The position numbers were made by a program, and so were the translations under genes. Positions 2,029-30,400 of a stretch of 32,000 bases of DNA are shown here, in pieces. Below the pieces are notes generated by a model. That model searched no databases, was not told the origin of the DNA, and saw only the letters and a program-made list of their open reading frames with translations. The DNA comes from Synechocystis sp. PCC 6803 substr. PCC-P (GTDB taxonomy: Bacteria; Cyanobacteriota; Cyanobacteriia; Cyanobacteriales; Microcystaceae): NCBI RefSeq assembly GCF_000284455.1, contig NC_017039.1:2130001-2162000 (forward strand). The letters run 5' to 3'. The first letter of the stretch is position 1; every line of letters starts with the position of its first letter.

Positions 2029-4980
2029 ATGCCCAACCTAGAGCCCGCCGTTGTTGTCCCTACCTCCGAGGCGATCGCCGTTGACCTGACTAAGCTAGAG
2101 GAGAAGTTAGCTCCGGCGGATAGTTTTTTGGATCGTCACTTGGGCCCCGGAGAAACGGAACAGCGGCAAATGCTCCAGACACTGGGTTTTGATACTTTGG
2201 GGGATTTGATTGACCAAGCCGTGCCCCCGGCCATTCGCTTTCCCCGGTCTTTGCAACTACCAGCTTCCCAAAGTGAGTATGGGGCGATCGCCCAACTGAA
2301 ATCCATTGCCTCCAAAAATCAAGTTTTTCGCTCCTATATTGGCATGGGGTACTACGACACCATCACCCCGCCGGTTATCCAACGGAACATTTTAGAAAAC
2401 CCCGGTTGGTACACAGCCTATACCCCCTACCAAGCGGAAATTGCCCAGGGTCGGTTGGAAGCGCTGTTGAATTTTCAAACCATGGTGATGGATTTAACCG
2501 GGCTGGAAATTGCCAATGCTTCTTTGTTGGATGAAGGTACCGCCGCCGCTGAAGCCATGGCCCTGAGTTATGGGGTCAGCAAAAGTAAAGCCAATGCTTT
2601 TTTCGTTGCCCAGGACTGCCATCCCCAAACCATTGAGGTGATTAAAACCCGGGCCAATCCCCTCGGTATTGAAGTAATTGTCGGCGACCATCATACTTTT
2701 TCCTTTTCTACGTCCATTTTCGGCGCTTTACTGCAATACCCTGCCACCGATGGGGCTGTTTATGATTACCGTAGTTTCATTGACAAAGCCCATCAACACC
2801 AAGCCTTGGTTACCCTGGCCGCCGACCCCCTCAGTCTGACCCTGCTCACTCCCCCCGGTGAATTGGGGGCTGACATTGCGGTGGGCAGTACCCAGAGGTT
2901 TGGCATTCCCTTGGGTTACGGTGGGCCCCACGCCGCCTACTTTGCCACCAAGGCCGAATATCAGCGGAAAATGCCGGGACGCATTGTGGGGGTTTCCAAG
3001 GATGCCCATGGTAACCCCGCTCTCCGTTTAGCGCTGCAAACCAGGGAACAACATATCCGTCGGGACAAGGCCACTAGTAATATCTGTACTGCCCAGGTTC
3101 TCTTGGCAGTGATGGCTTCTATGTATGGGGTGTACCACGGTTCCACGGGGCTAAAAAATATTGCCCTGAGAATTCACCAGTTGACGGTCCTATTGGCGAT
3201 CGGCTTAAAGCGGTTAAATTACAGTCTCAATAATGATTACTTTTTCGATACCCTGCGGGTGGGGGTAGGGGAACAGAGTGCTCCAGCCATTTTGAAAGCG
3301 GCGGAAGGGCGGGGAATTAATCTGCGGCCCCTGGTCCCTGGGGAAGTGGGCATTAGCTTGGATGAAACGGTGACGGTGCAGGATCTGCTTGACCTGTGGC
3401 AAGTTTTTGCTGGTAAGGATAATTTACCCTTTACACCGGAGGAACTGTGGTCGGAAGTTAAAACGAGCTTTCCCGCCGATTTAACCCGTCAGAGTCTATA
3501 CCTACAGGATGCAGTTTTTAATCAGTACCATTCCGAAACCGAGTTACTGCGTTATTTGCATCAATTAGAAAGCAAAGATTTAGCCCTAAACACTTCCATG
3601 ATTCCGTTGGGTTCCTGCACGATGAAACTCAACGCCACAGCGGAAATGATGCCGGTTACTTGGCCTGAATTTGGCAAAATTCACCCCTTTGCCCCCGCTG
3701 GTCAAACGGAAGGTTATCAGATTTTATTTGCCCAATTGGAAGCCTGGTTGGGGGAAATCACCGGTTTTGATGCCATTTCTTTGCAACCTAATGCCGGTTC
3801 CCAAGGAGAATATGCGGGTTTGCAGGTGATCCGTCAGTATCACCTCAGTCGGGGTGAGGAACAACGCAATATTTGTTTAATCCCTGAATCGGCCCACGGC
3901 ACCAATCCAGCCAGTGCGGTGATGTGTGGCATGCAGGTGGTCCCGGTTAAGTGCGACGGGGAAGGCAACATCGATGTGGAAGATTTGACCAGTAAAGCAG
4001 AAAAGTACGGCGATCGCCTGGCGGCGTTAATGGTGACCTATCCTTCTACCCATGGGGTATTTGAAGCCACCATCGGAACTATTTGCGACATTGTGCATCG
4101 TTTTGGCGGCGAGGTTTACATGGATGGGGCCAATATGAATGCCCAGGTGGGACTGTGCCGTCCGGCTGATTTTGGGGCGGATGTGTGCCATCTCAATTTA
4201 CACAAGACTTTTTGCATTCCCCACGGCGGTGGCGGCCCCGGTATGGGCCCCATTGGGGTTAAATCCCATTTGCAGGCATTTTTACCCCGGACTAGTTTAA
4301 ATTCGACTGCTGAACTCCAAGCAGAAGACCAATCCATTGGCATGATTTCCGCTGCCCCTTACGGCAGTGCCAGTATCTTGGTTATTTCTTGGATGTACAT
4401 TGCCATGATGGGCCCCCAGGGTTTAACCAAGGCAACGGAGGTGGCCATTCTCAGTGCCAATTACATGGCAAAGCGGCTGGAAAATTATTACCCCATTTTA
4501 TTCAGGGGCAATAATGAGTTAGTGGCCCATGAATGCATTCTCGATCTGCGTCCCCTGAAGAAACAAGCGGCGATCGAGGTCGAAGATGTGGCCAAACGCC
4601 TCATGGATTTTGGTTTCCATGCCCCCACGGTGTCCTGGCCGGTGCTGGGTACCATGATGGTGGAGCCGACGGAGAGTGAATCCCTAGGGGAGTTAGACCG
4701 TTTTTGTGATGCCATGATTGCCATTTACCAAGAAGCTCAGGCGATCACCCATGGAGAAATTGATCCCGCTGATAACCCGTTGAAAAATGCTCCCCATACG
4801 GCCCAATCCCTCATCTGTGGCGAATGGAACCATCCCTACAGCCAGGAAGAAGCTGCTTACCCTGCTCCTTGGACTAAGCAGTTTAAATTTTGGCCCGCCG
4901 TTGGCCGCATTAATAATACCTACGGTGATCGCCATTTAGTTTGCTCCTGTGAAGGTATGGAGGCTTATAAGGAAGGATAG
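2029..4980 (+). CDS. gcvP: Glycine dehydrogenase (decarboxylating), glycine cleavage system P protein
   Basis: 983-aa single-chain P protein. Carries the hallmark [16 protein letters not shown] pyridoxal-phosphate lysine region and the [21 protein letters not shown] motif. Confidence 0.97.
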
Positions 4981-5085
4981 CCCAGGTAGCTTTATCCTAG
5001 AGAGATCGTCACTTGTGAAGGATTAATGAGGCGATCTCTAAAATGCTAGACTGAGAAACTGTAGTAAGAAATTCTGATTTTGAGT

Positions 5086-5565
5086 ATGACGAAGAAAGAG
5101 GCTCTTACCTTCGCTCAAGGCTTGGGGTGGACAAAGGCTGATGCGGAAAGGGCTTATCAAGCTTTAAATGTTAATTTCTCCGACCTTCAATCCACCCTCG
5201 ATTATTACAAACATGAGTACGGTATTGAGGATGTAACAGACCGAGATATAGCTGTTCTTTCACTCGTACTAGCAGATTTCGCAGGCGAGGTTTTGCTGGA
5301 TAGGCAAAGGAAACAAGCTGCACAACAAGGTGAAGTAACAAAAAAGAAAAATAAAATCAAAGAAATCGAACAGAGTCACGCCCAAGAAATTGCTGATTTT
5401 AAAAAAAGCTTCCACGAGCAACACAGTGCATTAATGGAGCTTTTGATAAAGGTTTATAGCACGGCGAAAAGATTCGGTCTAAAACCGGAACCGTGGATTG
5501 AAGCTATGATTGATGCTTATGAGGAGGCAAAAATTGGAACTGATAACTCGCAAACAGTTGCTTGA
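5086..5565 (+). CDS. Island ORF A: hypothetical helical protein with a Lys/Glu-rich central segment
   Basis: Open frame 5080-5565 (TTG at 5080, first ATG at 5086). AT-rich composition. I recognise no family. First gene of a three-ORF overlapping set. Confidence 0.55.
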   Translation: MTKKEALTFAQGLGWTKADAERAYQALNVNFSDLQSTLDYYKHEYGIEDVTDRDIAVLSLVLADFAGEVLLDRQRKQAAQQGEVTKKKNKIKEIEQSHAQEIADFKKSFHEQHSALMELLIKVYSTAKRFGLKPEPWIEAMIDAYEEAKIGTDNSQTVA

Positions 5566-5908
5566 ACTTGGATTGACAAGTTATCAAGCTCAGCGGATAA
5601 CTAAAGAACTTAAGCCGATTTCAAAAACAAAAAGAGGTAAAAATTACAATATTCAAGAGGTAATTTTATCGATTAATACCTTACTTGAAAATAAGAGGAT
5701 TCAGAAAAGAACAAGAACAAGTTTGAAAAAAGTAATAGATATATTGATCCCCACTCTTGACAATATCATACCTATTAGTTTTACTCAGGAAAACACATCT
5801 GAATTACAACAACTAGCACAGCAAGCATTAACTACAACCTTAGAAGTAAATCGTAAGCTAGCTAAGTTAGAAAGGCGTTCATTAGAAATTAAAGGACGAT
5901 ATGAATGA
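5534..5908 (+). CDS. Island ORF B: small putative winged-helix/excisionase-like HTH protein with a C-terminal coiled coil
   Basis: The frame is open from 5510. A TTG at 5534 lies 6 nt after a strong GAGGAGG (5521-5527); ATGs at 5513 and 5519 are alternative starts. The segment ITRKQLLELGLTSYQAQRITKELKPISKTKRGKNYNIQEV resembles the HTH_17/Xis-type helix-turn-helix plus wing pattern. That resemblance is inference only. Confidence 0.5.
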   Translation: MELITRKQLLELGLTSYQAQRITKELKPISKTKRGKNYNIQEVILSINTLLENKRIQKRTRTSLKKVIDILIPTLDNIIPISFTQENTSELQQLAQQALTTTLEVNRKLAKLERRSLEIKGRYE

Positions 5909-6266
5909 AGATTTAGATAATGACTTCCAAAAATTGTATGAAAAATACAAGCTAGCTCGCCGAAAATTTTGCCATGATCTAGAAAAGCTTCAGCGAAGGG
6001 AGGAAAATATAAGGGGTTATTATACTCCTCGAAATGTATTTAATCGTTGGCGAGACTCAATAGAAGGAAAAAAATGGAAACAAAATCAATATGAAAAACA
6101 GCAAGGAAAATGTGCTTGCTTTGGTTGTGCTTTTGTCGCTCAAAGCCCGGAATATCTTGAAATAGATCACATAAAACCTATTGCAACTCATCCCGAATTA
6201 TCTGTTAATATAAAAAACTTAAGATTGCTTTGCCCTCCCTGCAATAAAAGAAAAGGGGGGAGATAA
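5901..6266 (+). CDS. Island ORF C: small HNH endonuclease (121 aa)
   Basis: The motif set CACFGC ... EIDHIKP ... NLRLLCPPCNKRKG gives the His-Asn-His core flanked by two Cys pairs (zinc-ribbon HNH). The ATG overlaps the ORF B stop (ATGAATGA, 5901-5908). Confidence 0.8.
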   Translation: MNEDLDNDFQKLYEKYKLARRKFCHDLEKLQRREENIRGYYTPRNVFNRWRDSIEGKKWKQNQYEKQQGKCACFGCAFVAQSPEYLEIDHIKPIATHPELSVNIKNLRLLCPPCNKRKGGR

Positions 6267-6292
6267 ATTATTAAACTACTATTTTATTTTTT

Positions 6293-6448
6293 GTAAAACC
6301 TTTACATTACCTTGGAGGTGGAATGACTATTGAAGAGGTTTTGGATGATTTCCCTGATCTCACTCCAGAAGATATCCAGGCTTGTTTTGCCTTTGCTGCT
6401 GATCGTGATCGTCGCCTCATGGTTGTTCCTGATGAAATTGCTGTTTGA
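6293..6448 (+). pseudogene. N-terminally truncated DUF433-family (antitoxin-like) gene remnant
   Basis: The frame reads ..VKPLHYLGGGMTIEEVLDDFPDLTPEDIQACFAFAADRD.., matching the C-terminal half of DUF433 proteins (G-M-S/T-x-EEIL-x-D-[YF]P-x-L-T-x-EDI-x-A). The N-terminal half with the GTRI motif is absent. An in-frame stop at 6272-6274 caps the frame upstream. Confidence 0.5.
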
Positions 6449-6488
6449 TGAAAATTTCTCGCGCAATTCTGATTCAGTGTTGATCTGA
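6432..6488 (+). pseudogene. Truncated DUF5615-family (PIN-like toxin partner of DUF433) remnant, 18 codons
   Basis: Reads MKLLFDENFSRNSDSVLI*. MKLL-x-DEN-[FL] is the characteristic N-terminus of DUF5615 proteins, and the ORF overlaps the end of the DUF433 frame as in intact pairs. It terminates after 18 codons. Confidence 0.4.
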
Positions 6489-6549
6489 AATTAATTGTTG
6501 GAGCCGCAGCTAATTAGAAGCTAATCTGCACTCGAATGAAGATGAAAAC

Positions 6550-6969
6550 CTATCGTGAAAAATGCTGTTTCACCACATCCCAGGGGGAACAATCCCAATA
6601 ATCGATGTGGGAAATGATTAACCCAGCTTCATTTAGGGTTAATTCACTGCAGCCGCTGATGGCAATTCTCGGTTTCCAGGGCAGGGGAGAAGTCCAGTTC
6701 AAGGTCCAACGGGTGGTAATTTCCTGGTTCACCTGGGTAATCTCGTGGAGCTGTAGGTCGATCGCCTGAAACCAACGACCCAAGAATTGGATCATCTTTT
6801 CGTATCGAGCCAAACCCCGAAATTGGCTTAAAGGATCTTGAAAATAAACGTTTGGGTCATAGATGCTGAAGGTTTGGTGCCAGGGAAAATTGGCGTAGTC
6901 CTGTTGCAGAATGGTCAGAATGCGATCATTGGAGGTCATTTTGGGGCTTTCCATTGTCGGCGGTAACAT
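6550..6969 (-). CDS. NTF2-like/DUF2358-family protein conserved in cyanobacteria and plastid-bearing eukaryotes
   Basis: 139-aa ORF with native composition. The pattern IYDPNVYFQDPLSQFRGLARYEKMI ... ISHIDYWD fits what I recall of DUF2358. Confidence 0.65.
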   Translation of the reverse strand: MLPPTMESPKMTSNDRILTILQQDYANFPWHQTFSIYDPNVYFQDPLSQFRGLARYEKMIQFLGRWFQAIDLQLHEITQVNQEITTRWTLNWTSPLPWKPRIAISGCSELTLNEAGLIISHIDYWDCSPWDVVKQHFSR

Positions 6970-7019
6970 TGACTGGTTTAATTTTGTTAAGTTTATTTGA
7001 CATTTAGGAGGAAAAGGTT

Positions 7020-8222
7020 TTGTCTAAGCAATCGATCGCCAATTTGACGGAGGCAGACCTCGCAGGGAAACGGGTTTTTGTCCGGGTAGATTTTAATGTG
7101 CCCCTAGATAACGGCAGCATCACCGACGACACCAGGATTCGGGCAGCCTTACCCACCATCAAAGACCTGTTGAGCAAAGGCGCCAAAGTTATTTTGGGCA
7201 GTCATTTTGGCCGTCCCAAGGGCAAAGTAGTGGACAGCATGCGCCTCACCCCCGTTGGCGATCGCCTAGGGGAATTATTGGGCCAGCCGGTGGTCAAATG
7301 CGACGATTGCATTGGTGCTGAAGTTACAGCCAAAATTGCTAGCCTACCCAATGGTGGTGTGGCCCTGTTGGAAAATCTCCGCTTCCATGCCGGGGAAGAA
7401 GGTAACGATGCTGAATTTGCCAAAGCTTTAGCGGCCAACGCCGACCTCTACGTTAACGATGCCTTTGGTACTGCCCACCGGGCCCACGCTTCCACCGAAG
7501 GGGTCACCCATTTCCTCAGCCCCAACGTTGCTGGTTACCTAATCGAAAAGGAATTACAGTTCCTCCAAGGAGCCATCGAAGCCCCCAAACGTCCCCTAGT
7601 GGCGATCGTGGGAGGTTCCAAAGTGTCCAGTAAAATCGGTGTGATCGAAACCCTATTGGACAAGTGCGATAAGTTGATCATCGGCGGCGGCATGATTTTC
7701 ACCTTCTACAAAGCCCAAGGTTTAAACACCGGCAAATCCCTGGTGGAAGAAGACAAATTGGACTTGGCCAAATCCCTCATGGCTAAAGCCAAAGAAAAAG
7801 GCGTGGAATTTCTCCTGCCCACGGACGTAGTAGTGGCCGACAACTTTGCCCCCGATGCCAATGCCCAAACCGTTGGTGTCGATGCAATTCCCGATGGTTG
7901 GATGGGTCTAGACATTGGTCCCGACTCCGTCAAAACCTTCCAGGATGCCCTCGCTGGTTGTGGCACTGTCATCTGGAACGGCCCCATGGGGGTATTTGAA
8001 TTTGACAAATTTGCCGTTGGTACCGAGGCGATCGCCTGCAGCTTGGCTGAATTGACCGCCAGTGGCACTGTCACCATCATCGGTGGTGGAGATTCTGTCG
8101 CCGCAGTGGAAAAAGTGGGAGTGGCCGAAAAAATGAGCCATATTTCCACCGGTGGGGGCGCTAGCCTGGAATTGCTAGAAGGTAAAGTTCTGCCCGGCAT
8201 TGCCGCTTTAGATGACCGATAA
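7020..8222 (+). CDS. pgk: Phosphoglycerate kinase
   Basis: 400 aa, with RVDFNVPL, the [10 protein letters not shown]-terminal motifs and a GGGDS C-terminal motif. The TTG start is preceded by AGGAGG (7006-7011). Confidence 0.97.
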
Positions 8223-8490
8223 ATTCCCCTAGATGATACTGGAAAAAGATTTTTCTCGTCAGTTTGCAGACTGGACCACGGGATAACTTTTTTCACTAGA
8301 TGAATGGATTCTTTTCATCTTAGAACGCTGAAAAACTCCTCAGAAATTAACCGGGAAGATGGATGAAAATCTGTCCTCCCGTTTTTCATTATATCGCCCC
8401 GAGAAAAGTGCATCAATAACATTTTTGAATAATGGAGAGTGCTATAGCTAGGAATAGTTTATTATGCCAACTTTCCCCGAAAACTAACCT

Positions 8491-9420
8491 ATGCGACTAG
8501 AACAGTTACAGGCTTTTTTAAAAGTTGCAGAGCTAGGCAGTTTTCAACAGGCGGCATTACAATCGGAAGTCACCCAATCCACCATTAGTAGGCAAATTCA
8601 AGGTTTGGAATCTGCCCTCAAGTGCCAATTATTTCATCGGGGAGCCCAGGCTAAATTAACGGTGGCAGGGGAATTATTTCTGCGGCGGGCAAGGAAAATT
8701 TGTCAAGAATGGGATGTGGCTAGCGAAGAAATTAGTAGTCTTTTTCAAGGCAAACAAACGGAATTATGTGTGGCAGCAATTCACTCAGTTTGTGTCTCTT
8801 CCTTGCCTAGTTTATTGCCCAAATTTTGCCTGGGCCATCCCCAAATTCAACTACGGGTGACGGCCCTGGGGAGTGACCGGGCTTTGAAGGTTTTACAGGA
8901 TGGTTTGGTGGATGTGGCCATTATTATGAGCCATCGCAATTTAACTAATACCAAAGAGTTGGCTATTAAACCCCTCTATGAGGAGCAAATTTGTATTTTG
9001 ATGGCGAGCGATCATCCTCTGACAACAAAAAAATTTATCACCTGGGAAAATTTAGGCCCCTATCCCCAGGTTATTTTTAAAGATGGTTACCGGATGCGAC
9101 GACTGGTAGAAGATGAATTTAGTCGCCGGGAAATCCCCCTCAACGTTAGTTTAGAACTAAATATTCCTGAAGCCTTTTATGGGGTGGTACAGGGGAGCGA
9201 AATGATTGCCTTGATGCCCCAATCCTTGGTCACACCGGTGATTGATAATCCCAACTTTTCCGTGCGCTATTTATTTTGCCCAGAGTCCGGCGATCGCCAG
9301 GATTTTCGACGGCAAGTATCGGTGGTGACCACGGTGGATCGTTTGCAAATACCCCCCGTGGCCGAATTTTTCAATTTAGTAGTGGACCATTACCGCTGTG
9401 GAGCCTTGACAGTAAAATGA
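8491..9420 (+). CDS. ntcB: LysR-family transcriptional regulator, probably the nitrite-responsive nitrogen regulator NtcB
   Basis: N-terminal LysR HTH (LEQLQAFLKVAELGSFQQAALQSEVTQSTISRQIQGLE) plus a substrate-binding domain. The NtcB assignment rests on my recollection that ntcB follows pgk in Synechocystis PCC 6803. The family call is solid; the specific name is less so. Confidence 0.75.
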   Translation: MRLEQLQAFLKVAELGSFQQAALQSEVTQSTISRQIQGLESALKCQLFHRGAQAKLTVAGELFLRRARKICQEWDVASEEISSLFQGKQTELCVAAIHSVCVSSLPSLLPKFCLGHPQIQLRVTALGSDRALKVLQDGLVDVAIIMSHRNLTNTKELAIKPLYEEQICILMASDHPLTTKKFITWENLGPYPQVIFKDGYRMRRLVEDEFSRREIPLNVSLELNIPEAFYGVVQGSEMIALMPQSLVTPVIDNPNFSVRYLFCPESGDRQDFRRQVSVVTTVDRLQIPPVAEFFNLVVDHYRCGALTVK

Positions 9421-12805: not shown

Positions 12806-13639
12806 CTAGAGGGGAGATAGATGGGGAAATAAGGCGATCGCCAAAGCAGTGAGGAGCAAACAAATAATGCCAGCTAAACCGGCTAAAGGTTGATTGGCCT
12901 TGCCCACCCAAATATTGCCATCGGTGTTGGGATAGGTAATTAAACCAGTGGCATCACAGGCCGCCAGGGCAAAAACCCACCCCCCGTGGAGTCCCCAAGC
13001 TAGGGCGAGATTACCGCCATCCACCAGACGGGCCCACAGCAATACCATGCCCAATAACCACAATCCTGGCAGTTGGTAAGCTGTTAAACGCCGTTCCCAT
13101 AGCAGATGAAGGATGGCAAAAATGGTGCTGACGATGGTGGCTGCCCCCCAGACTGGTAAATCCTGTTGCAGTTGATTTTGGAAAATACCCCGAAAAATTA
13201 ACTCTTCCACCAAGGCGATCGCCAGGGCCAGTATGAGAAAAAGCGGGGAAAGTTTGACTAAATCCCACCATTTTTCCCGATGCCATTGCAGTAGACCAAT
13301 TTGGCCCTGTATTGCCAAAGTTAAGCCTAAACCGAATACCGCCACCCCCACGGCGATCGCCAGGGAAAGTAATTGGTCGGAGATGACGCTTAAACCGTAA
13401 TCCCCCAAGGATTGTTGGTCTAACCAAGTCACCGCCCAGATGGGTAGGGGGGAAACCAAGTAAAGCGATAACACCAAGGGTAATTTTTGCTCCGGGGTAA
13501 CAGCCTGCCAGGGTTGCCAAGCTAGTTTACGACCCACCACCAGGGCAACGGGATACCACAGCACTAGCCAACTAAAAAGAAAAACAATAATTTTTAACAA
13601 TCCCGGCCATGGTTGCCAAAACTCCATCAAATTTTCCAT
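12806..13639 (-). CDS. CPBP-family (CAAX/Abi-type) intramembrane glutamic endopeptidase
   Basis: Polytopic membrane protein with the diagnostic EELIFRG motif and a downstream FAILH motif. Confidence 0.8.
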   Translation of the reverse strand: MENLMEFWQPWPGLLKIIVFLFSWLVLWYPVALVVGRKLAWQPWQAVTPEQKLPLVLSLYLVSPLPIWAVTWLDQQSLGDYGLSVISDQLLSLAIAVGVAVFGLGLTLAIQGQIGLLQWHREKWWDLVKLSPLFLILALAIALVEELIFRGIFQNQLQQDLPVWGAATIVSTIFAILHLLWERRLTAYQLPGLWLLGMVLLWARLVDGGNLALAWGLHGGWVFALAACDATGLITYPNTDGNIWVGKANQPLAGLAGIICLLLTALAIALFPHLSPL

Positions 13640-27446: not shown

Positions 27447-30400
27447 ATGACTATCAATTTGGCCGATCGCCTGTCTGCGCTCACCACAGATTCAGCAGGA
27501 ACGACCCATGTTGTGTGGGTGGAAAATACCAGTCTTTGGCACGCTGTCTATGATCCGAACTCCGCCATGTGGGTTAATGCCCAGGTGATCGCCAATGTGG
27601 GTAATCAATCCCTCACTAGTCTAAATTTAATCGCCAATGACAAGTTAATTCAGCCCCCTGGTAATAACAGTAACGCCGCTCCGGCCCCTGGTTTAGTGGT
27701 GGTTTATCAACAGGGCAGTGGCAATGACAGTGATATTTTTTACACCGCCGCTCGTTACAACTCCGGGGGCAGGACGGAATGGTTAAGCACTCCCCAGGCC
27801 CTAACTTCAGACCAAGTGGGAGATTTGGCCCCCAGGGCGATCGCCGAAGAAAATGGCACAGTGCTTGTAGTAGGGCAAAAAGTTGATGCAGAGCAAGCTA
27901 AAAACCAAGCCATCCGAGAGGATACAGATCTCTATTATCAAAGTTTTACAGTCAACCAAAATCAATTTAGCAGTAATCAAAATTCCCCTGCTAGCGGCAA
28001 TATTATCCAGGGAAATTCCTACAATTATTTAGGTCGTAATCGCAATGCCCCTGCCGCCAGTTATGAAGTTCTTAGTGCAGGGGAAGCAAGCTTTCTTGGC
28101 AACAAACCTACCTATCAAGGATTAGGATTAAATTGGAACGCATCCAATGAATTTAATATTAATGCCCTTTCACTTATTCTTGCTAAAAAATTAGGACAAG
28201 AACCAGAGAAAGTTTTAAAAAGCATGTTCGGCCCTCTAATTTTATCTATCTCTTTGCAGGGTTCATCGGGCAATAATCCCGAATGGAGTTTGTTTGGGGG
28301 CGGTGAATCAACCAAAGGGAGGTTACTACTGAATTCCCTGGCTACCGTAGGGAGAAAACAAAGACGGAATGTTGGCAATAGCGAGGATAGTAATCGTTTT
28401 GATAAATGGAGAAGTCAGGGAAGAGGTGCACTTTCTCCGGATTCTCAAGAAGGGTTTGATTTATCCTTTACGTTGTCTTCTCTGTATAGCTATGGCAACA
28501 GTAATGGTAATTCTGACGGTAAATTTCCCCTTTATTTGGAAACTGGAGGAGCATTAGCTAGTTTAGCGGGGTCTATTCCTTTATTTGGTTTTGATGATAT
28601 CTTAAATCGTGGTCTAAATTTTAACTTCGGCTTATTTTTTAATGCCGGTGTAGCTCTGCAATGGCAGGTTGCCCCAAAAGATCCCGGTAATTATTTTCCC
28701 CTATTAGCTCCATACCTTGATTTAAGCGGTAACACAGACCGTTTATTTATTACCGATGGTTTTTACAATGCTTTACCGACCTATTCTGAAGTAACAGCAG
28801 CTCTAGCTTTACTGTCTAATCTGGAAGCGGCCTTTGCTTCCATTGATCAAAATAGTTCTGTAGAGCTGGAATCTTTACTGGTGGGAATTCCTGTTACATT
28901 AGGCTTTGAAGGAACCCTTGAAATTCCCTTTATTTTTAAGCTATTTGGTTCCATTGGCTTCTTTGCTGATGGTACTTTTACTATCAAAGGAGATACTCCC
29001 TCTTCCATTACCATTGGTGCTCCTTTCAATCTTACTGTCAGTCTGCTTGGTCTTATTGGTGCTAGGATTGCAGGATTTCCCACTTGGACGCAAACATTTG
29101 CTGCTTCTTCATCTCAAAATAACCAAACTGGGCTGGAAGCGAATAATACTGCTAGTGTTGATGGCTTTTTGCTCACCATTAATCTTGCTCAATTCCTGGA
29201 GCCTAATCTTAGTCTTAATCCCACAGACTTTACTGTCACCGTTACCAACGCCAATGGTCAAATTTCCACTATTCCTGTGTTTGGAGTGGTGGTTCAAACT
29301 GATAGCCAAAGTAACAACAGTGAAGTTATTTTACGACTAGAGCAGGAAATCCCCTACACCACCGTAAATGGCCAGCCTTTTTCCAATATTATTGTTAAGT
29401 ACAGTGGCAATCAATTAGGTAACTTTACCAGTAGTCCCGTTGCCCTTCAATCTCCCGACACTCTAATTTATACCTATAATCCCACCAGTGGTACAGGAAA
29501 TGACTACACCCAAAATAATCAACAGATTACTATTGCTTTTAACGGTCCACTAGACCCGGATATTCTGCCTACTGAGAATCAATTACTCAATTGGTTTGCG
29601 GTCACCAACAGCAGTAATCAAGCCATTGCTATCACTGATGTAGCGGTCAATCAAAGCAGAATTGTTTTAACCCTTGCTTCCAATACCGCCATTAACCCTG
29701 GTGAAATCTATACTGTCCAGTACAATCCTGATGCCAATAGTGACCAACAACTTAAAGCTGCCAATCAGAAAACTATCACAGCTTTTACCGTTAGTAATGG
29801 CACTGCTCCCACTGCCTGGGGGTTGATTAATCGTACCTTTGCCGGTGTTATCAATGTCCAAACCCAACCGGTACTGAGTAATTTAACCAGTGACTTTGCC
29901 CAGGACACTTCCCCCGCCTTAGCCCTCACCAGTCAGGGGGACATCTTATTAGCTTGGAGTAGTGACACCCCTCCCATTACTCCCATTTCCGTTTTAGCAG
30001 AAGGCGATTATCTTTACCTTGTCTTTGCCGATAATCTCAAAAATGACTCGGCTAATCCCCCCAGTAACTCCCAATTTACGATTAAAACTAGCGATGGGAA
30101 TACCACTACTCCCACCAACGTTTCCCTAGCCCAAAATACCATTACCCTAACCCTGACTAATTCTGTTAATGCTAGCCAAATTGTTGAAGTTAGTTATAGC
30201 TTAAGCGGGACTAATCTCACTTCTAATCTGTATCTGGCTGATGCCACAAATACAAGCTTTTGGGTTCCTGATTTCACCAACTCTGTTCAATCCGCTGGCA
30301 GTACTAGTACTGCTCCCACCAGTTTGTTAGGGTCGGTAATTTCTAACCTGATCACCATTCCCTTCAATCAGACCCTAAACGTCAATCAAATTCCCAATGG

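Follow-up and report, generated by a model that had tools for sequence, protein, structure and literature searches.

In tripartite type II toxin-antitoxin (TA) operons, such as omega-epsilon-zeta and paaR-paaA-parE, a regulator gene is combined with the genes of an antitoxin and a toxin. A type II system is defined by a toxin that alone arrests growth, a co-encoded antitoxin that neutralizes it by direct binding, and autoregulation of the operon. Free-standing HNH homing endonucleases, such as the T4 Mob proteins and I-HmuI, are single proteins with DNA-binding modules of their own. The stretch considered here, 32,000 nt of Synechocystis sp. PCC 6803 substr. PCC-P (contig NC_017039.1; referred to as the window), carries behind gcvP a compact cassette of three genes, slr0294 (gene A), slr0392 (gene B) and slr0393 (gene C), the last of which encodes an HNH nuclease. 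The cassette represents a previously undescribed family, so far found in cyanobacteria only, and is best read as a self-contained, horizontally spread three-gene nuclease module, acquired by the PCC 6803 lineage at a site flanked by gcvP and a DUF433/DUF5615 gene pair. Comparison of many such cassettes further shows that B ends and C begins with paralogous helices, which co-evolve within each cassette under selection at the protein level. The cassette is best filed among the small nuclease-based mobile or conflict modules, and it is a member of no named system tested.

Like the tripartite TA operons, the cassette is small and translationally coupled, with the enzymatic effector encoded last. 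B combines a predicted N-terminal DNA-binding domain with a putative C-terminal partner-binding helix, as many antitoxins do, and the bare cassette moves into variable regions beside other TA genes. Unlike those operons, it has no component homologous to TA families in Pfam, NCBIfam or PADLOC, its effector is a zinc-ribbon HNH nuclease, and the putative antitoxin helix is paralogous to the N-terminal helix of the putative toxin. The cassette is compatible with a type II TA system in architecture only, with its coupled small genes, a DNA-binding protein in the middle, the nuclease at the end and a hairpin at the promoter. With the free-standing HNH homing endonucleases it shares an AT-rich composition, a patchy, intergenic occurrence and the lack of a recombinase, but it divides nuclease and DNA-binding domain between two proteins, with at most the twin helices as a link, it has a third conserved gene, and no conserved homing site was seen among its loci. 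The features of the cassette, in window positions, are the following.

4977–6303, no strand: inserted AT-rich segment of 1327 nt, delimited by blastn and MAFFT against the empty-site relative L046; the lowest-G+C 1.32-kb window in the 32 kb
5001–5039, + strand: hairpin (inverted repeat AGAGATCG-N23-CGATCTCT), abutting the −10-like box; RNAfold −14.3 kcal/mol
5030–6268, + strand: core cassette, common to the independent copy L006 (blastn)
5039–5044, + strand: TAAAAT, candidate −10 box of the operon, conserved in L006
5086–5565, + strand: gene A (slr0294), 159 aa; alternative start at 5080, homologues support ATG 5086
5521–5527, + strand: GAGGAGG, Shine-Dalgarno sequence of B, inside the 3′ end of A and 6 nt before TTG 5534
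5534–5908, + strand: gene B (slr0392), 124 aa; alternative start at 5510, homologues support TTG 5534
5795–5905, + strand: tail helix of B, residues 88–124, assigned as paralogous to the head of C by hhalign, reversed controls, and register and cognate tests
5901–6266, + strand: gene C (slr0393), 121 aa, HNH nuclease by Pfam match
5916–6026, + strand: head helix of C, residues 6–42, assigned as paralogous to the tail of B by hhalign, controls, register and cognate tests, and codon comparison
6111–6254, + strand: HNH catalytic core with CxxC...CxxC zinc ligands, residues 71–118, from alignment and a Pfam match to residues 76–119

The three genes form a single translationally coupled, co-transcribed operon. 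Because the starts supported by homologues are ATG 5086 for A and TTG 5534 for B, the overlap of A and B amounts to 32 nt; the homologues of B begin with MELITRKQL, and the RefSeq model likewise has 124 aa. B and C overlap by 8 nt, ATGAATGA at 5901–5908. The island has a G+C content of 36.2%, as compared with a mean of 47.9% (standard deviation 3.0, minimum 40.2) in the other 1.32-kb windows of the 32 kb, and the G+C content at third codon positions is 24% in B and C versus 55–58% in gcvP, pgk and the DUF2358 gene beside the cassette, sll0364. A preliminary description of this DNA, made from the letters of the window, had pointed to an AT-rich island after gcvP with three overlapping open reading frames (ORFs) on the same strand, GAGGAGG 6 nt before TTG 5534 and TAAAAT at 5039–5044. 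The difference in composition is borne out, and all of these sequence details are present. The same description had called the island HIP1-free. The absence of GCGATCGC (HIP1) and of CGATCG is real, with zero copies of either, but it carries no significance: at the frequencies of the window, with 24 HIP1 sites (0.75 per kb) and 48 copies of CGATCG, a 1.3-kb segment would lack them with a probability of ~0.37 and ~0.14, respectively, and the absence therefore adds nothing beyond the drop in G+C.

The ancestral state of the site is preserved in L046, a metagenomic contig from a close Synechocystis relative, where the site is intact and without cassette, the flanks are 87–94% identical to the window, and the gene order is gcvP, DUF433 (78 aa), DUF5615 (109 aa), DUF2358, pgk. 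Alignment to this contig by blastn and MAFFT places the left junction at window 4976/4977, within the last gcvP codons, and the right junction at ~6304–6306, within DUF433. As a result, 148 ancestral nt, which ran from the stop codon of gcvP through the spacer to about codon 31 of DUF433, were replaced by 1327 nt. In the copy of the window there is neither a target-site duplication nor a terminal repeat, inverted or direct; both ends are unique sequence. The present gcvP stop codon (junction 4975–4980) is supplied by the inserted DNA, and the gcvP protein of PCC 6803 ends in ...KEG (983 aa), those of L046 and PCC 6714 in ...KEGL (984 aa). On the right side, 6323–6448 matches the C-terminal half of DUF433 (Pfam, E 3.4e-8); this half-match and the intact pair in L046 agree with the broken TA locus that had been noted beside the island. 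The whole remnant of the DUF433/DUF5615 pair, at window 6306–6466 (compare L046 6476–7025), consists of the last 41 DUF433 codons and the first ~19 DUF5615 codons. A 249-nt deletion between short GAAAATTT(C/A)TC repeats took out most of the DUF5615 toxin gene, an event separate from the insertion of the cassette, which cut off the 5′ end of the antitoxin gene. The interval between gcvP and DUF2358 had been singled out for comparison with relatives; empty of the cassette in L046 and rearranged in PCC 6714 and S. salina, it is not conserved with native composition. The empty and the filled site provide a natural before-and-after pair, showing how cassettes of this kind land in TA loci and help to erode them.

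A search with a profile of A covered 185,579 species genomes and found 34 loci, all of them in cyanobacteria, from Pseudanabaena to the Nostocales. At 31 of the 34, the genes downstream of A on the same strand are an ORF of the size of B and then an HNH ORF; the remaining three are L015 with A alone, L020 with A and a C fragment, and L043, where the contig ends inside A. The order A-B-C is also present in L001, L002, L006, L049, L050 and L058, and PCC 6714, PCC 7338 and metagenomic relatives of Synechocystis show it as well. Overall it recurs in about 40 loci, all cyanobacterial. The earlier description had stated that separate occurrence of the ORFs in unrelated contexts would speak against its proposal; the trio was found together in these ~40 loci, in varied contexts. 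Within the genus Synechocystis, three different insertion loci are occupied: in PCC 6714 and PCC 7338 the trio is located immediately upstream of a dienelactone hydrolase (DLH) gene, a site without cassette in PCC 6803, and in a third Synechocystis-like lineage (L006) it is located downstream of speA among other TA genes. The cassette proteins of these lineages are 53–68% identical and the gcvP proteins fall within one 90%-identity cluster, which points to independent acquisitions. Along these lines, homology between genomes at the DNA level is confined to 1.2–1.8 kb: blastn of the window against L006 aligns only 5030–6268 with 7204–8434 (70% identity), the flanks being unrelated; between Phormidium tanganyikae and Phormidesmis priestleyi homology extends over 1.38 kb at 80% identity and stops at the cassette; and in two pleurocapsalean genomes it covers 1.42 kb, again confined to the cassette. 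The identity between the two Chroococcus copies is 81%, and the apparent Mastigocoleus copies belong to 20-kb contigs that are themselves identical. The neighbors are heterogeneous: the 114 proteins that flank 33 loci contain 186 Pfam families, none of which occurs in more than four, and no constant partner gene was found in this set. Other TA genes adjoin the cassette of the window as well as those of L002 (BrnTA) and L006 (DUF4258/DUF2283, PemK).

Both A and B lack any match in Pfam, NCBIfam, PHROG and PADLOC. An exhaustive HMMER search with the A profile yielded 76 relatives, all small proteins, among 1.84 billion representative proteins. No relative of A was found in 50,697 phage genomes (INPHARED) or in 2.9 million IMG/VR contigs, and the one relative among 72,556 plasmids is encoded on the megaplasmid of Gloeothece PCC 7822. 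Profile searches of PDB sequences returned noise only, e.g., the Cas9 bridge helix and PDE9 at E ~0.01, and Foldseek gave no match at E ≤ 0.001 for the models of A or B. In the literature, slr0294 and slr0392 are unmentioned in article text, and slr0393 appears only in a LexA RNA-seq table. If the family is delimited by an A protein with GWTxxDAxRA and RQRxQAAQ, a small B and an HNH protein, encoded in this order on one strand, and by a B tail homologous to the head of C, the copy in the window shows all of these features. In this context one should keep in mind that current catalogues give poor coverage of the defence and addiction systems of cyanobacteria.

The one component with a recognizable family is C, built from an N-terminal helix and a zinc-ribbon HNH (H-N-N) domain, which matches Pfam HNH (PF01844) with E 1.3e-9, above the gathering score, and belongs to the HNH superfamily. 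D89, H90, N106, N115, C71, C76 and C114 are invariant in 20 homologues and, judged from the alignment, none of the HNH catalytic and zinc residues is missing from C. Among solved structures the closest is 5h0m (E 2.6e-5), a 130-aa stand-alone HNH endonuclease, which we take to come from a Geobacillus phage. The best PADLOC matches of C are PtuB (E 3.8e-8) and PDC-M01B (E 2.8e-6), and NCBIfam adds a weak match to the retron HNH (TIGR02646). In this respect C resembles the Septu, PDC-M01 and retron nucleases, but the matches span the ~60-residue HNH core of profiles of 200–280 residues, and the cassette is without a PtuA-type ATPase, a reverse transcriptase or a relative of PDC-M01A. In Septu, an AAA15/21-type ATPase (PtuA) is located beside PtuB; here, neither A nor B has a PADLOC or Pfam match, and there is no ATPase ORF from gcvP to sll0364. 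An assignment to IscB, in which HNH is fused to a RuvC domain and a structured guide RNA is encoded alongside, fails as well: the NCBIfam IscB profile reaches 20.9 bits against a cut-off of 175, over the HNH core only, and Rfam recognizes no RNA family in 4500–7000 at E up to 1. Like the packaging HNH proteins of the HK97 gp74 type, C, with its ~120 aa, is a stand-alone HNH protein with zinc ligands, and it is encoded beside a small winged-helix, oligomerising DNA-binding protein, as B is predicted to be. It differs in that no large terminase or portal gene lies by any copy of the cassette, that the gene order is A-B-HNH, and that A is without phage relatives; no terminase or portal gene was found near the cassette of the window or among the 25 commonest Pfam families of the 114 flanking proteins.

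The AlphaFold2 (AF2) model of B has a block-mean pLDDT of 86–94 in residues 1–70, with the order b-H-H-b-b-H-H (strand, two helices, beta-hairpin wing, two helices), such that an excisionase/MerR-like winged helix-turn-helix in residues 1–76 is followed by a long C-terminal helix. On the basis of this model, B carries a winged-helix DNA-binding domain. The best local match found by Foldseek, in BFVD, is a phage excisionase with an rmsd of 1.4 Å over 54 columns (probability 1.0, E 0.13, not significant). The MerR-type proteins CbpM, CarH and MtaN head the PDB fold list, none of them significant, and small-terminase matches are poor (TM 0.2–0.34, rmsd >20 Å). The top PDB fold match, likewise non-significant, is CbpM, a MerR-like partner of the J-protein CbpA. 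Compared with the excisionase and MerR families (HTH_17, MerR, DUF3173), B is alike in the fold of residues 1–76 and in the succession of a winged helix and a long helix. It is unlike them in lacking sequence membership and an integrase partner, and in having a tail helix in common with a nuclease. There is no HTH_17 or MerR match to B at the sequence level, DUF3173 appears below its cut-off in 5 of 46 members, and an integrase family occurs in 2 of the 114 neighbors; the likeness to an excisionase module is one of fold only.

A is all-helical in its AF2 model (pLDDT 64). It opens with a three-helix module of UBA/RuvA-III-like appearance (GWTKADAERA), continues with the basic motif FAGE..L.DRQRKQAAQ...TKKK and a long coiled coil, and closes with a further helix. 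Across the homologues the alignment shows GWT..DA.RA to be invariant and, further on, FAG..L..RQ..QA.Q....T; the Foldseek matches to UBA and to RuvA domain III are not significant. One relative of A, P0246 (281 aa), is fused to a C-terminal DnaJ (J) domain. The characterization of the three proteins in the preliminary description has held up well: A had been called a helical protein, as modeled; the excisionase/MerR-type winged helix-turn-helix proposed for B is backed by the high-confidence model of residues 1–76 and by a phage excisionase as best match, at no significant E-value; and C, described as a 121-aa zinc-ribbon HNH nuclease, has the PF01844 match and the invariant residues. The same applies to the statement that the cassette fits no nameable system and has no integrase, terminase or ATPase nearby, as neither A nor B has a confident match to a terminase, structural or other family, and no terminase, portal or integrase gene is adjacent in the window.

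The relation between B and C was analyzed in 19 type-1 and 13 type-2 aligned cassettes. These two types have homologous A proteins over the first 80 residues (hhalign probability 99.8%) and homologous C proteins (98.3%). Homology between B1 and B2 was rejected (0.2%), leaving two unrelated B families. In type 1, the tail helix of B (last ~40 residues) is homologous to the first ~40 residues of C (93.8%, E 1.6e-7), and in type 2 the homology links a central B helix with the N-terminal helix of the C protein from the same cassette (E 3.7e-5). In hhalign, P values of at least 0.009 were obtained for pairs across the two types, for A with B or C, and for all reversed-sequence controls. The mean BLOSUM62 score per column is +0.60 in the hhalign register and −0.10 to −1.06 at every shift from −7 to +7, and because it is positive in register only, heptad periodicity is not the cause of the likeness. 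Furthermore, cognate B-C pairs score 1.07 per column versus 0.58 for non-cognate pairs, a difference reached in 0 of 50,000 clade-level permutations. In L027, the B and C segments share 59% amino-acid identity and 32% identity at third codon positions, with the same codon in 6 of 20 identical residues. Gene conversion as the source of the likeness was rejected on these grounds, the third codon positions being near random. A likeness at the level of the protein and not of the DNA argues for maintenance by selection on the proteins, rather than for recent duplication or gene conversion. Selection maintains such a helix in both B families, unrelated as they otherwise are, which hints at a mechanism of control or targeting undescribed for HNH systems.

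It can be rationalized that B and C would associate via their twin helices, either by forming a pseudo-symmetric coiled coil or by alternating at a shared docking site, which might be located on the coiled coil of A. If the two proteins meet in this manner, the DNA-binding protein would tether or restrain the nuclease. A would be the conserved partner at the core of the module, in the role of a scaffold, a regulator or a sensor, and C the effector nuclease, restrained by B and/or A until a trigger arrives; the hairpin in front of the operon would be a plausible operator for autoregulation. The layout of the module suggests a conflict role, i.e., a TA-like addiction and/or anti-phage system, and in our judgment the chances that this is its role are about even. 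Such a role is favored by the TA-like operon layout, the antitoxin-like B, the spread as a bare cassette, the TA neighbors in several loci and the intact frames in more than 30 stand-alone copies. A bolder version, which we consider possible if rather doubtful, sees in the cassette a new, cyanobacteria-specific class of three-component nuclease controlled by "helix mimicry": B, with its copy of C's own helix, would heterodimerise with C in place of a C-C dimer and hold the HNH domain inactive, or would compete for the coiled coil of A, and A would sense phage infection or loss of the cassette and release or recruit the nuclease. Should the twin helix tether the nuclease, the cassette would amount to a naturally modular (split) site-directed nuclease. 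As it resides in a naturally transformable strain, the cyanobacterial model in widest use, these predictions are directly testable.

Several of these properties would also suit a selfish split homing endonuclease, in which B, perhaps with A, recognizes a site and recruits C via the twin helices, and cut cassette-free copies are repaired from a cassette-bearing copy. C has no DNA-binding domain of its own and B supplies one, the middle gene is swapped between the subtypes while A and C persist, as expected of a specificity module, and the replacement of 148 nt without target-site duplication would fit the repair of a double-strand break. Small, autonomous and without recombinase, the cassette is AT-rich and patchy and occupies intergenic or gene-end positions, and the polyploidy and natural competence of cyanobacteria would permit its spread. 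We nevertheless regard a homing function as unlikely. A homing gene is expected to recur at one site, and no recurrent site was found, the loci differing in every lineage examined (gcvP/DUF433 in PCC 6803, DLH in PCC 6714 and PCC 7338, speA in L006, and others); no genome has two near-identical copies at different sites; and gene A with its strong conservation is left unexplained.

A phage or satellite origin was considered on account of Crocosphaera watsonii (L050–L057) and the Gloeothece PCC 7822 megaplasmid (L058), where the trio directly follows a small Xre/HTH_3 regulator gene that is divergent from a BRO-family gene, with a Mu_F-like minor capsid gene and DnaJ-domain genes nearby. The separate DnaJ-domain genes are found a few genes downstream of the trio, at 7021–7665 in L050 and 10213–10620 in L058. 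The module would, on such an origin, do a phage job, either early-operon DNA processing or a cos/packaging aid of the HK97 gp74 type, with B as a DNA-binding subunit resembling a small terminase, and the stand-alone chromosomal copies, that of PCC 6803 included, would be remnants or domesticated. The relation of C to 5h0m and the resemblance of B in BFVD to an excisionase and, weakly, to a small terminase point in the same direction. We judge this origin improbable to a similar degree as homing. Conservation between the Crocosphaera and Gloeothece elements is limited to the BRO gene and the trio, A is absent from the phage genomes and IMG/VR contigs searched, and PHROGs give no match for A or B. 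Terminase, portal or integrase genes are adjacent neither in the window nor regularly elsewhere, and the more than 30 stand-alone copies keep their three frames and the catalytic residues, which speaks for a function independent of any further phage components. Of the readings put forward in the preliminary description, a defence or addiction module, a homing cassette and a phage remnant, all three thus keep some weight, but the remnant of an HK97-like packaging module has been weakened, with no terminase or portal beside any copy and A missing from ~50,000 phage genomes and from IMG/VR.

The conflict-module reading has points against it as well. The contact between B and C is a prediction from sequence comparison, and the model of A is poor (pLDDT 64), with all Foldseek matches of A and B non-significant. 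PADLOC recognizes nothing in the cassette except the generic HNH domain, and TA genes are not enriched overall among the 114 flanking proteins. The location of the trio in a phage-like regulatory region in Crocosphaera and Gloeothece would fit a phage function equally. Finally, decayed copies are known: L015 has A alone, L020 has A and the 31 C-terminal residues of C, and a remnant in L018 has the tail of B together with C. The decay is not one-sided as for a classic toxin, since L015 and L020 keep A and the remnant in L018 is without it. The latter, at 13166–13532 of a Chroococcopsis plasmid contig, is a partial second cassette ~2 kb downstream of a complete one; it retains the last 29 residues of B and a C protein 46% identical to the C of the first copy.

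With regard to expression, the wild-type values, in reads per kilobase per million mapped reads (RPKM), are 44.9 for A, 33.3 for B and 17.7 for C, and in a lexA-disrupted mutant they rise 3.3-, 3.8- and 2.0-fold to 147, 128 and 36, respectively (PMC4759255 supplement). The 5′-to-3′ gradient and the common regulation are as expected for one operon. All three ORFs are thereby transcribed (PMC4759255 supplement); a lack of transcription had been listed earlier as counting against the proposal. The joint increase of 2–3.8-fold (PMC4759255 supplement) could speak for a host housekeeping or stress function, e.g., a DNA repair or processing complex of the LexA regulon, to which the weak, non-significant resemblance of A to RuvA domain III might be added. 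Such a function appears most improbable, as the cassette is absent at this site in the close relative L046, occupies different loci in sister species, has a foreign composition and is rare (76 clusters in 1.84e9 proteins). Furthermore, the upstream gene gcvP also rises 1.6-fold in the mutant, and some read-through or an indirect effect is possible (PMC4759255 supplement). No obvious LexA-box-like sequence was seen by eye in 4977–5085, and the rise of the cassette genes may be indirect.

The upstream region contains the motif "...cgatc(g/t)cTAAAATgcta...", conserved with L006 in front of the A start, and L006 has a HIP1-armed hairpin at the position that matches the hairpin at 5001–5039 of the window. 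A scan for consensus promoters and terminators found nothing on the + strand; its strict two-hexamer pattern misses TAAAAT, and the hairpin was not called as a terminator. Possibly the hairpin serves as an operator or insulator. In L006, a 42-nt direct repeat (90% identical) at 7169–7210 and 8450–8491 brackets the cassette, and each copy folds into a hairpin whose arms carry GCGATCGC. The repeat may represent a duplicated terminator or an attachment-like site, or be due to chance. No equivalent flanking repeat was found in the window or in nine other loci.

Some genomic neighborhoods deserve a brief description. The marine cyanobacterial cassette L002 (6519–7501) is adjoined by an unrelated HNH gene on the opposite strand (175 aa, HNH_5) and an Alr0857-family gene, with the BrnT/BrnA pair on its other side, in a small cluster of conflict-type genes. 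Four Pseudanabaena genomes (L032 7713–9961, L034 7573–9920, L039 7617–9895 and L041 6421–8798) have two genes on the same strand directly before the cassette, encoding a ParA-type ATPase of 465–479 aa with an HSDR_N-like N-terminus and a protein of ~271–324 aa with a ParB N-terminal domain; these loci are syntenic and restricted to that genus, so that a functional link is indistinguishable from shared ancestry. Rpn/PD-(D/E)XK transposase-like genes or fragments, as judged by eye, adjoin the cassettes of L016 (3013–3933), L017 (6573–6950) and L021 (11263–12219), and in the two Chroococcus copies the homology runs ~450 nt upstream into an Rpn-like gene. Genes of this type are very common in cyanobacteria, and their adjacency may be coincidence. 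Within the window itself, the stretch with the second-lowest G+C content is found at ~27900–28600, with ~40–41% over 1.3 kb.

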